A program made the translations under genes and the position numbers. A stretch of 56,302 nucleotides of DNA from a virus: the UHGV virus genome UHGV-0090450; one strand, written 5' to 3'. The notes under the pieces were generated by a model. It saw only the letters and a program-made list of their open reading frames with translations, made no database searches and was not told the DNA's origin. Numbering within the stretch: position 1 is the stretch's first letter; each line of letters opens with the position of its first letter. This document shows positions 853 through 41,706 of this stretch, piece by piece.

Positions 853-1396
853 TTTGTTCTCCACGTATATGCGCTGCACCGCGCTGAATTCGGGTAAAAG
901 GAAGCCCTCACCGTCCGGCGATTATTGAGTCAATTACATTTCCATAAATGCCCCCGTAGGGGCGGTTAGTTTCTCCACAAAACAGAGAAGAACACCTGCG
1001 GTGGCAGCCGCCCGGATGGATTGGGTTATGAGCCCGTCGTCCGGTGATGCTCTTCTCTGTTTTGTAAAAAGGACGGTACCAGCCGGAAGCAAGGGTACAA
1101 GCTGGTACCGCCAGGACTACACACAGCATAAAGTTGTGGTGCCGGGCGCCTCCCGGTGCCTGGCGAAGGTTGCACACCAGGCGGGTGGGTATCCACAGAA
1201 GGTCGACTGTCAGCCTCAACCTTAACCCGCGTGCGCTGAGCCGCATTCACCACAACGCTAAGAATTCTCTCTGGTTGAAAATACTTAGCTGTTATGTGCC
1301 TGCTTTTAGCCACATCAGGCGAGGTGGACCTGGTTATTCCCCAACAACAAGGATTCGGTTAATCTGGTTATCCCCAACAACGCAAAAGGAAAAGAA

Positions 1397-1831
1397 ATGT
1401 CCGGTAATATCTATACGCTGTACAAATCCCACTGTGAAAATGTTGGAAAGTATCGGGGCATTGAAATCAGTGGGGTAGTGTCATCAGTCGAAATAAGCAA
1501 AGTTGAATCAAGGGCAACATTACTTACTCTTTTGGACCTCGTCTTACATGAGCACCGGAAGAAATTCGGCACTCCCTATAATCAGTTGAATGGGAAAAAG
1601 GCTCTGGTTCACCTTATTCTGATGAAGCATCACTGGATGCCAAAACAGATTAATGAGATGAAATTTGATGAACTTCTTCTTTCAATTCAGGATGAACTCA
1701 CACTTGATAAAATAAGCGTAACCGCCCAGAAATTTTTAGATTATCGAGACTGGAGATCACAAATTCATCACTTTGATGATTTTGACGAAAATGAATGGGA
1801 TCCTAATTTGTCTGCACAATATCTAAAGTAA
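1397..1831 (+). CDS. hypothetical protein (144 aa), immunity-region cargo
   Basis: Clean ORF preceded by AAAGGAAAAGAA and by two direct repeats GGTTAT(T)CCCCAACAAC; no recognised domain. Confidence 0.5.
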   Translation: MSGNIYTLYKSHCENVGKYRGIEISGVVSSVEISKVESRATLLTLLDLVLHEHRKKFGTPYNQLNGKKALVHLILMKHHWMPKQINEMKFDELLLSIQDELTLDKISVTAQKFLDYRDWRSQIHHFDDFDENEWDPNLSAQYLK

Positions 1832-2009
1832 CATCCTGTGATAAAACCGTGATTTCCTGATCCAGTTTTTTTAAGGAGTCTATTGTTTCCTGTCGATAAG
1901 ACAGCACTTCACGAAGCTGGTTTATAGCTGCCAGCTTCTTTGTCATCCACTCATAAATTTCCTCATCTGTGTAGCCAGGCGCGACGATTTTGGGTTCTGT
2001 TTTGTGCAT
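1803..2009 (-). CDS. hypothetical small protein (about 68 aa), first ORF leftward of the cI/OL region
   Basis: ATG (MHKTEP) preceded by GAGGAG; track ORF starts at an upstream TTG (2024). Confidence 0.4.
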   Translation of the reverse strand: MHKTEPKIVAPGYTDEEIYEWMTKKLAAINQLREVLSYRQETIDSLKKLDQEITVLSQDVTLDIVQTN

Positions 2010-2065
2010 TTCACATCTCCTCAAGTTATCAGTTACTTGTTGATGGGGACCAGATTGTTAAAGAG

Positions 2066-2092: not shown

Positions 2093-2257
2093 TTGCTAAC
2101 GAATCATCCTGGACTTCATATGCCCCAGGCGGCTACTTCGTGGGCGTCCTGCCTGTTCGTTTTTGACATTTACTGACTGCTTACGACACATGCACCGTGT
2201 TGCAACCAGATTTTGTTGTAATCCTGTAGTTGGTCTGGAACAAAAGATAAAATTAAA

Positions 2258-3138: not shown

Positions 3139-3399
3139 ATGCAATCACCATTACGAAATGTGCGTAAGGCGCATGGTTTCACTTTGCAGCATGTTGCTGC
3201 GGGTGTTCAAGTCAATCCAGCGACGTTGAGTCGTATTGAGAGGCTGGAGCAGATTCCATCTATCGAGCTTGCAGAACGTTTAGCCAATTTTTTTAAGGGT
3301 GAAGTCAGCGAAATGCAGATTCTTTATCCGGCACGTTTTCAATCTAGCCAAAACCAGAATGGGTTTAAACCACAGGAACAGGAGGTGAACCGTGGGTAA
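3139..3399 (+). CDS. cro: Cro-like HTH regulator
   Basis: Small HTH_XRE protein (TLQHVAAGVQVNPATLSRIER) divergent from cI, RBS GGAGGA. Confidence 0.8.
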   Translation: MQSPLRNVRKAHGFTLQHVAAGVQVNPATLSRIERLEQIPSIELAERLANFFKGEVSEMQILYPARFQSSQNQNGFKPQEQEVNRG

Positions 3400-3949
3400 G
3401 CATCACTGGAAAGTAGAAAAACAGCCTGAGTGGTACGTGAAAGCTGTCAGAAAAACTATCGCAGCGTTGCCGGGGGGGTACGCTGAAGCTGCTGACTGGC
3501 TGGATGTAACAGAGAACGCATTATTTAACCGCCTTCGTGCCGATGGCGATCAGATTTTCCCGCTGGGATGGGCAATGATTTTGCAACGTGCTGGTGGAAC
3601 TCACTTCATTGCTGACGCTGTGGCGCAGTCTGCAAATGGCGTCTTTGTGTCTCTTCCTGACGTCGAGGATGTGGACAACGCCGATATTAACCAGCGTCTG
3701 CTGGAAGTCATTGAACAGATCGGCAGTTATTCAAAACAGATTCGTTCAGCAATCGAAGACGGTGTAGTGGAACCGCATGAGAAGACAGCAATTAACGACG
3801 AGCTGTATCTCTCAATTTCGAAGCTGCAGGAGCATGCAGCACTTGTCTACAAAATTTTTTGCATTTCAGAAAGTAATGACGCCCGCGAGTGTGCAGCTCC
3901 GGGCGTCGTGGCGTCGATTGCTTCTGGTTGTGGAGAAACTAACGCATGA
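3392..3949 (+). CDS. hypothetical early regulatory protein (position of cII/YdaT-like genes)
   Basis: GTG start after AGGAGG; position after cro; family not recognised with certainty. Confidence 0.45.
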
Positions 3950-41584: not shown

Positions 41585-41706
41585 CTGGTTGAGTATACAG
41601 TAGTAGACTTTGAGCGACGAAAGAAAAGGCTGTGTCTAGGGTCGCTCCCGAAAATCCGTACACCTCGACGGACTGGTACAGCCACTACAGTAGAGGACGC
41701 TGAGGT

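Follow-up and report, generated by a model that had tools for sequence, protein, structure and literature searches.

The stretch analysed here, the virus genome UHGV-0090450 (56,302 nucleotides, hereafter the window), begins within the early-left operon of an SfIV/SfV/ST64B/e14-type lambdoid prophage. Between its yfdR gene and a divergently oriented gene for a 144-amino-acid (144-aa) protein lies a GC-rich gap, the minus strand of which very probably carries a structured RNA homologous to the STnc100/PasD family of prophage small RNAs (sRNAs). An initial annotation had already described the gap as resembling a structured RNA or regulatory element more than a degraded gene, and had given no strand; the evidence presented below places the element on the minus strand, in the direction of the leftward promoter pL and opposite to the 144-aa gene.

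The early-left locus

The yfdR start at 851 and the start of the 144-aa open reading frame (ORF) at 1397 are separated by ~545 bp of intergenic DNA. The proposal that this gap belongs to the immunity region agrees well with its surroundings, where a cI-like repressor gene (3041-2349, minus strand), a cro-like gene (3139-3399, plus strand) and a ymfL-like gene (3392-3949) are found, together with two operator-like repeats TTGCGAAATATGCAA at 2258-2293. The repeats adjoin a minus-strand TTGCAT-17-TATCTT, and from these two features we infer that pL would start leftward from ~2237. Read leftward, the pL operon includes a conserved leader element (2160-2096), then an ORF of 73 aa (2024-1803), the antisense strand of the 144-aa gene, the RNA region and yfdR. 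The individual features are:

851 (start called by the Prokaryotic Genome Annotation Pipeline, PGAP) or 879 (longest-ORF start) to 316, leftward: yfdR, encoding an HD 5'-deoxynucleotidase
948-966, minus strand: small GC hairpin (GCCCCUACGGGGGC) and deletion junction
977-1065, minus strand: hairpin A, with a 25-bp lower stem, a small three-way junction and an invariant apical sequence, then GUGGAGAAAC
1066-1113, minus strand: predicted Rho-independent terminator, stem (UGG)CGGUACCAGC / GCUGGUACCG(UCC), 17-nt loop, UUUUU at 1070-1066
1114-1132, minus strand: candidate 'seed' UUUAUGCUGUGUGUAGUCC, single-stranded, between core and terminator
1133-1256, minus strand: core, a predicted five-helix pseudoknotted RNA of the STnc100/PasD superfamily
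1251-1296, minus strand: hairpin P0, CAUAACAGCUAAGUAUUUUC / GAGAAUUCUUAGCGUUGUG, 19-20 bp, directly 5' of the core
1290-1396, plus strand: module C, with core GUGCCUGCUUUUAGCCACAUCAGGCGAGGUGG, two GGUUAU(U)CCCCAACAAC repeats, ACAAGGAU and the Shine-Dalgarno sequence AAGGAAAAG
1397-1831, plus strand: gene for the 144-aa ECs1072-family phage-associated protein (NCBIfam NF033230, 157.8 bits; phrog_5286)
2096-2160, minus strand: module D, GCGAACAGGCAGGACGCCCACGAAGUAGCCGCCNGGGGCAUAUGAAGNCCNGGAUGAUUCG, a ~65-nt structured pL-leader element upstream on the same transcript

All of the inverted and direct repeats reported in the initial annotation are present at the positions it gave. Inverted repeat I1 (977-1001 / 1041-1065) has 25-nt arms that are 84% complementary and include perfect 15-mers, ACAAAACAGAGAAGA / TCTTCTCTGTTTTGT, at 977-991 / 1051-1065; the repeat noted previously as ACAAAACAGAGAAGA corresponds to hairpin A. 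Inverted repeat I3, CGGTACCAGC / GCTGGTACCG (1074-1083 / 1101-1110), is complementary at 10/10 positions and lies within the terminator stem (1113-1101 / 1083-1071), which equals the repeat noted previously as GGTACCAGC/GCTGGTACC. The direct repeats GGTTAT(T)CCCCAACAAC occupy 1332-1348 and 1366-1381 and share the exact 11-mer TCCCCAACAAC (1338-1348 and 1371-1381). The G+C content is 0.57-0.60 at 1001-1300, compared with 0.35-0.47 in the flanks, as expected from the earlier description of the gap as GC-rich. The minimum free energy (MFE) of the minus strand is -164.2 kcal/mol (z = -6.8), a value equalled by 0/100 shuffles, and folding of the plus strand is weaker (-151.1, z = -4.6).

Judged from related phage sequences, the region is a mosaic, in that the core, hairpin A and module C are each found without the others in other phages. 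Positions 300-963 of the window match yfdR-proximal DNA of SfIV and positions 952-2164 match the DNA upstream of sb37, so that sb37/yfdP and sb36/yfdQ are absent from the window; the two SfIV matches share 12 bp at 952-963. E. coli K-12 was rejected as a model, since its CPS-53 prophage has yfdPQR without the RNA. Matching DNA is widespread, being present in about half of the complete E. coli genomes (2784/5426), and the locus is annotated as nothing, as a pseudogene or as spurious ORFs.

An RNA core related to STnc100 and PasD

A covariance-model search, which had been suggested as a check of the initial annotation, matches the minus strand: a permissive Rfam scan places STnc100 (RF02076) at 1063-1286 with 41.4 bits (E 3.7e-7, full model 1-206). 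Sub-threshold STnc100 matches also occur at the syntenic place in SfIV, ST64B, 118970_sal3 (sal3) and Cronobacter phiES15. For a wider sample, one genome per species was scanned for the invariant P5/P1 string CACCGGGAGGCNCCCGGCACCA, which yielded 111 loci, nearly all from Enterobacterales (individual loci are cited by L number). The fold, derived from 72 representatives, consists of the following elements, all on the minus strand:

P1: GUUGUGGUG (1256-1248) / CACCACAAC (1141-1133); family form GUGGUG/CACCAC
Junction J, after P1: AAU
P2: GCGGC-UCAGC-GC(A)CGC in the window; in the family, five pairs, a one-nucleotide bulge and a UNNGC pentaloop
P3: GGG/CCC in the window; three pairs
Strand 'a' and a variable hairpin: between P3 and P4 in the family fold
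P4: GCCUGG/CCAGGC in the window; its loop CAACCUU (a') pairs with AAGGUUG ('a') to form the pseudoknot
P5: CCGGG-AGGCG-CCCGG in the window, CCGGG-AGGCR-CCCGG in the family; stacked directly on P1

Helices P1-P5 can all be formed by the window copy, in which GGUGAAU, the UCAGC loop and CACCGGGAGGCGCCCGGCACCAC are also present. The single-sequence MFE structure of the window recovers P1, P2, P4 and P5, and RNAalifold independently predicts P1, P2, P3 and P5. Our own covariance model, R1, scores the window copy at 75.5 bits, the window sequence being part of its training set; it detects PasD1 of enteropathogenic E. coli (EPEC) at 26 bits and, more weakly, picks up relatives that occupy this slot in mEp460, an Stx2a phage and a Klebsiella phage. 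On these sequence comparisons the window copy is a genuine but divergent member of the STnc100 family. Relative to the canonical CCCCC/GG(A)GGG, the changes in its P2 (GCGGC/GC(A)CGC) are fully compensatory and the UNNGC loop is kept, and the pseudoknot of phiES15 (AAGGCUG/CAGCCUU) differs from that of the window (AAGGUUG/CAACCUU) by a compensatory pair of changes.

The 131 R1 matches were aligned to R1, and 127 distinct enterobacterial copies were counted. In these copies paired cells amount to 98.4%, compared with 84.3% in shuffles and 37-58% in slid-partner controls, and double changes are found in 17/23 pairs, the observed value being unmatched by any shuffle on any measure; a point against these pair counts is that the covariance-model alignment behind them is itself fitted to the structure. 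P3 and P4 were also checked sequence by sequence, free of any model. In a permutation test of the pseudoknot, cognate strands score 5.96 and non-cognate strands 4.48, with 0/2000 permutations as high. ARAGORN reports no tRNA or tmRNA gene in the window, and the likeness of the stacked P1 and P5, as a 'minihelix', to tRNA is only an impression.

The same stretch has been read as protein-coding. PGAP calls a 'frameshifted hypothetical protein' pseudogene at 934-1253 (minus strand), corresponding to a 112-aa ORF, the plus-strand ORF at 1001-1225 matches phrog_3651 (E 3e-49), and ORFs are annotated across the region in SfIV, sal3, F1055 and cdtI-type phages, all of which would suit a decayed protein gene with incidental hairpins. 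However, the 112-aa ORF is 97% identical to an N-terminal extension of SfIV_34, itself an over-long call of the 120-aa Sb37/YfdP gene that is correctly annotated in mEp460, and the PGAP pseudogene is an artefact of this over-extension. The phrog_3651 match has the same origin: this family groups annotated hypothetical ORFs that overlie conserved DNA, and wherever ORFs are called on top of a conserved RNA gene they will form such a 'family'. Each of the three codon phases has nearly the same number of substitutions when the window is compared with ST64B or sal3 (20/20/18 and 24/23/19), showing no codon periodicity, the indels of 1, 1, 1 and 20 nt break the frame, and the changes are compensatory for the RNA helices. 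No Pfam or NCBIfam match exists among the gap ORFs of 74-114 aa on both strands, in keeping with the earlier remark that the gap lacks protein-like ORFs. A decayed gene is therefore barely credible and already largely refuted, and the preference of the initial annotation for a structured RNA or regulatory element is borne out by covariation, by the absence of codon periodicity, by the frame-breaking indels and by homology to a validated sRNA family.

It is also conceivable that the repeats act as DNA, as operators bound by a regulator of the two divergent units or as recombination or module-exchange sites, or that a functional RNA resides on the plus strand. The mosaic of independently exchanged modules with sharp junctions would fit such a role, as would the P0 palindrome, which lies between two divergent units and has arms that co-evolve within each phage, and the direct repeats just upstream of a gene start. 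By contrast, the strand-specific covariance model matches the core on the minus strand only, a U-run follows the hairpin on the minus strand only, and it is on the minus strand that the wobbles of hairpin A, and the majority of the P0 wobbles, read as G.U. Moreover, a pseudoknot and a bulged helix are traits of RNA and not of DNA sites. We regard a DNA-level or plus-strand function as very unlikely.

Flanking elements, transcription and the divergent gene

On the 5' side of the core, hairpin P0 (z -4.9) has six nucleotides in common with the beginning of the P1 5' strand, so that it can compete with P1. Its arms vary in sequence yet remain complementary in L004, L007, L059, L060, L101, L040 and L009; stems equivalent to P0 but unlike it in sequence are present in phiES15 and sal3 and also in two Buttiauxella prophages, L040 (Pantoea latae), L101 and mEp460. 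The presence of P0 implies an entry of transcription from upstream. A promoter scan of 850-2400 found none for the RNA, the best sigma-70 candidate in the window being CAGCTA-16-GAGAAT (6/12), and promoters of at least 9/12 occur in 0/16 copies of the variant clade compared with 21/104 canonical copies, 69/104 of which have terminators. Transcription from pL is thus suggested, because a recognisable promoter of its own is missing and the RNA is located in the early-left operon. A fixed nnnAAT hexamer 8-10 nt before P1 was considered as a promoter and rejected, as it has no -11A and is better explained as the P0 3' arm.

A short sequence resembling boxA (NusB/NusE), UGCUCUUU(C) or UGCUCUC, is seen 4-6 nt before P1 in L032, L101, L059 and sal3. 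The boxA-like UGCUCUUU likewise corresponds to the P0 3' arm and is explained by P0 covariation, such that the resemblance may be coincidental. In ST64B, this pL leader is transcribed more strongly upon prophage induction, as seen from STnc1310 and the ORF downstream of it (STnc1310 and STMMW_20251; PMC7067206). We map STnc1310 to 2955-2882 (minus strand) of L003 (ST64B), where the pL leader has a terminated 3' end, at a distance of 70 nt upstream from the core. With the intrinsic terminator of STnc1310, ST64B therefore has two terminators between pL and the first early-left gene.

On the 3' side, the terminator follows the core after an unpaired linker, a trait of STnc100 that the window shares. 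The terminator site is occupied by unrelated hairpins in ST64B/sal3 and in phiES15, each then followed by a U-run. Within the linker, UUGCUGUGUG(U/A)AGUC is kept in the window, SfIV, ST64B, sal3 and phiES15, even beside unrelated terminator sequence, and L092 carries UUGCUGUGU ahead of its terminator. The PasD seed UGUGAG sits at the same position, between core and terminator (PMC8550237 supplements). As far as the sequence can tell, the architecture of core, unpaired stretch and terminator is that of PasD1/2 and of the Northern-verified STnc100 copies. For the RNAs of the window clade, the conserved unpaired stretch and the U-tail of the terminator are an indirect hint at a putative Hfq-dependent pairing.

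Beyond the terminator, hairpin A comprises 34 predicted pairs, five of which show compensatory changes, and its mismatches are G.U on the minus strand. It is kept in mEp460, Stx2a phages, F1055, Kp4866-6 and phiNP, independently of the RNA core, and in the relatives hairpin A and GUGGAGAAAC constitute the 5' untranslated region structure of sb37/yfdP. Hairpin A may serve as an RNase III site or stabilise the 5' end of the mRNA. Module D, located further upstream on this transcript, is almost invariant in phages of E. coli, Shigella, Salmonella, Klebsiella, Citrobacter, Yersinia and Pectobacterium and in Buttiauxella and Pantoea prophages. It starts 10-15 nt after the pL start in most relatives, consists of a closing helix and two hairpins, one stem of which covaries, and has no entry in Rfam. 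We consider module D a candidate for a processive, N-independent antiterminator or for a leader RNA, by means of which transcription from pL would get past the terminator at 1066.

These elements can be combined into a model that we favour with some reserve, namely that the RNA is a PasD-like, Hfq-dependent and trans-acting sRNA driven by pL, with processing at P0 and a terminator gate. Upon infection or induction, transcription from pL would run antisense through the 144-aa gene, cleavage at P0, possibly by RNase III, would make the 5' end, and termination at 1066 would make the 3' end. The released RNA of ~190-200 nt would pair with target mRNAs via UGCUGUGUGUAGUC, with Hfq, and the folded core would serve as a stabilising or protein-binding scaffold. 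The terminator and hairpin A would gate transcription into yfdR...int in a tL1-like manner, so that only a terminator-resistant polymerase, which may have been modified at the pL-leader element 2096-2160, would get as far as these genes.

Several observations weigh against this model, in addition to the fitted alignment mentioned above. The window copy does not reach the RF02076 gathering score of 47 bits (41.4), and neither do SfIV, ST64B, sal3, phiES15, L206, L059, L017 and PasD1; canonical copies exceed it with 58-102 bits. Matches to the seed complement CTACACACAGCA with at most two mismatches are found 5 times across the window against 3.75 expected, and the sole exact match in the window is the RNA gene itself. 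Annotations from Salmonella differential RNA sequencing (dRNA-seq) contain STnc1310 just upstream in ST64B and no sRNA over the core, which argues against abundant expression in lysogens. The model has to assume both RNase III processing and antitermination by module D. Finally, 9/16 members of the variant clade lack a terminator and have the core 20-65 nt before a Shine-Dalgarno sequence and start codon, an arrangement that fits a cis-acting leader better than a trans-acting sRNA.

Accordingly placed cores are found in L017, L018, L023, L042, L059 and L060, and would be explained if the core were a cis-acting early-left leader, that is, a riboswitch-like, protein-binding or processing/stability element. 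Here, the folding of P1 versus P0 would set the expression of the downstream gene (sb37/yfdP in relatives, yfdR in the window) and the terminated 'sRNA' would be a by-product. The lack of an own promoter in any variant-clade member points in the same direction, as do the synteny of pL, module D, core and sb37, which is kept from E. coli to Buttiauxella and Pantoea, the covarying P0 that overlaps the P1 5' strand, and the near-invariant junction and loop nucleotides and pseudoknot, which are reminiscent of ligand- or protein-binding RNAs. However, complementarity between the terminator 5' arm and the core is at the level of shuffles (mean z -0.07; 1/79 below -2), the linker between P1 and terminator is unpaired, as in sRNAs, and the canonical relatives are self-contained genes that run from promoter to terminator, some of them arrayed in tandem. 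PasD, moreover, acts in trans, and no ligand or protein candidate is known. Overall, we view a cis-acting leader, the main alternative, as a tentative and rather unlikely explanation. A riboswitch or attenuator in the narrower sense was rejected, as terminator 5' arms and the core 3' half form duplexes of the same energy as shuffled sequences do (79 copies); competition between P0 and P1 in the variant clade leaves the terminator untouched.

A related but still less likely possibility is that the nearly invariant, pseudoknotted core does not merely support a seed but is itself an RNA domain with a function, to which a conserved factor of the host or phage binds, be it a small ligand, a protein, RNA polymerase or the ribosome. 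In the pL-operon clade this domain would gate the early-left genes in cis via P0/P1. If so, the STnc100-type 'sRNAs' would be stand-alone copies of a hitherto unrecognised class of phage regulatory RNA domains.

Facing away from the RNA, module C has the P0 5' arm as its left edge. Its relatives suggest that it serves the divergent cargo gene in the exclusion slot as a portable leader or promoter. Thus, module C is found upstream of ECs1072 homologues in L206, L207 and partly L205 (E. albertii, a metagenomic contig and, in part, a third prophage), and it precedes sieB in Hafnia phage Pocitis76, a 189-aa gene in vB_EcoM-606R2 and unrelated plus-strand genes in F1055 and Kp4866-6. The earlier remark that the 144-aa gene occupies the slot where lambdoid phages carry exclusion genes fits with this cargo, which is sieB-like or unrelated. 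The RNA does not include the direct repeats at 1332-1381, which belong to the plus-strand leader of the 144-aa gene. Within this leader (1345-1396, plus strand), ACAAGGAU is followed by a second GGA inside the Shine-Dalgarno sequence. We take ACAAGGAU to resemble the CsrA-binding consensus. In the homologue L205 the first GGA is situated in a hairpin loop, and CsrA control of the cargo gene is suggested as a possibility.

The 144-aa protein has no Pfam match, and PADLOC returns nothing for the 144-aa and 73-aa proteins. A linkage of the gene with the RNA was first suggested by the Superficieibacter prophage L035, where a 36%-identical homologue adjoins a canonical STnc100 array divergently. 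A tblastn search of the 144-aa protein over all loci finds a neighbouring homologue in L035 only. Contigs were also looked up for eight ECs1072 homologues and scanned with R1: no RNA adjoins the gene in L205, in L207 or in ten loci from five further homologues, and the other strong R1 match, L213, is ~1 kb from the ECs1072 gene. A scan of viral contigs returned only identical copies. An ECs1072 gene adjoining an STnc100-type RNA is therefore confined to the lineage of the window and E. albertii and to L035, and the RNA is present without an ECs1072 gene in ~110 loci. The RNA-protein module proposed initially for the 144-aa protein thus finds no support, as gene and RNA are not consistently linked across the loci examined.

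In most of the lineages examined, the ECs1072 gene has a partner, a short convergent ORF of 66-96 aa, by which its 3' end is overlapped; in the window this is the ORF at 1803-2024 (minus strand, phrog_1744), with relatives in L208-L217. The pair is always antisense inside an antiterminated operon, here that of pL, and elsewhere sits between Q and the holin gene, as in Klebsiella, Citrobacter, Salmonella and Atlantibacter prophages. ECs1072 gene and convergent ORF possibly form a two-gene module.

Apart from these elements, the only Rfam family above its gathering score in the window is an int-alpA RNA (RF02996) at 41629-41696 (plus strand, 45.5 bits). In the near-identical genome of E. coli FDAARGOS_1373 (L002, 1-942), genes for a DarT ssDNA ADP-ribosyltransferase and a NADAR antitoxin, a DarTG-type defence pair, are located just beyond the prophage integrase on the attachment-site side.

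Comparison with known systems

The RNA belongs to a family that is already known (RF02076; PasD) and thus does not represent an element of a new kind. Novelty appears to lie in a sub-threshold, promoter-less clade in the pL operon, together with the flanking hairpins, a pseudoknot at the level of the family and the leader-type copies. The assignment to STnc100/PasD corrects the annotations of the locus as nothing, a pseudogene or spurious ORFs, and extends a prophage sRNA family implicated in the regulatory networks of EPEC and enterohaemorrhagic E. coli (EHEC) to the early-left operon of SfIV/SfV/ST64B-like phages. Some family features are possibly undescribed, namely the pseudoknot, the bulged P2, the invariant loops, the tandem arrays before lysis genes and the leader-type copies. 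Together with module D, the locus offers a testable picture of how termination and read-through are arranged where the early-left operon of N-less lambdoid phages begins.

The arrangement at the locus is reminiscent of lambda tL1/nutL and of HK022 put. The RNA falls within the first kilobase of the pL transcript of an N-less phage with an HK022-like cI, a terminator has to be passed before the early-left genes, and a conserved structured leader, module D, is present upstream. Module D resembles putL in position and layout but shows no sequence similarity to the HK022 immunity region, and homology to put was rejected after blastn-short against HK022 20-33 kb gave chance matches only. An R1 scan of the same 20-33 kb of HK022 (L122, L123) has no match at E <= 1 and thus no copy of the core. 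The window RNA itself, which is ~1 kb from pL and followed by an efficient-looking terminator of its own, is not a put-like antiterminator.

The P22 sas/sieB antisense arrangement presumably resembles that of the window as well, with a transcript in the pL direction that is antisense to a lysogen-type exclusion-slot gene and its leader. This arrangement is mentioned in the discussion of PMC7067206. The structured core of the window RNA is not complementary to the 144-aa gene.

With STnc100 the window RNA shares P1, the bulged P2 with its UNNGC loop, P4, P5 with the AGGCR loop and the 3' terminator hairpin, as well as the invariant strings GGUGAAU and CACCGGGAGGCNCCCGGCACCA, carriage by lambdoid prophages and a location inside an antiterminated operon. 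It differs in its score (41.4 against a gathering score of 47), with compensatory sequences replacing P2, P3 and P4, and in having the additional upstream hairpin P0 and downstream hairpin A. The window copy has no promoter of its own and is found upstream of yfdP/sb37 in the pL operon. By contrast, TTGAC-N17-TAnnnT is frequent in canonical copies, where it ends 6-8 nt ahead of P1, and these copies follow Q, stx or tRNA genes and precede lysis genes. The canonical copies are autonomous units of promoter, RNA and terminator, some in arrays of three to five just upstream of the lysis genes. Lysogens of EDL933/EHEC express STnc100 copies, one of which is Northern-verified (PMC5331693). Tandem arrays are seen in L035 (6323-7018) and also in L050, L102, L034 and L104, directly upstream of holin/endolysin genes, with unit starts 220-580 nt apart (~250 nt in L035 and most of L102); in the L102 array an isrI-type RNA is interspersed and a tRNA gene is nearby.

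PasD1 and PasD2 of EPEC E2348/69 are Hfq-dependent and have been validated by RIL-seq (sequencing of RNAs ligated to their interaction partners) and Northern blotting (PMC8550237). A link between PasD and STnc100 has been proposed (bioRxiv 10.64898/2026.05.13.724894), with which the R1 match to PasD1 agrees. PasD, which lysogens express, differs from the window RNA in its location, between the genes for Q and the holin, and in its reduced P2 loop, and the two have no similarity at the level of BLAST. Nevertheless, PasD is a remote member of the same structural superfamily, with the same succession of a structured 5' domain, an unpaired seed and a terminator, and the seed motifs are similar, UGUGAG in PasD and UGUGUAG in the window clade.

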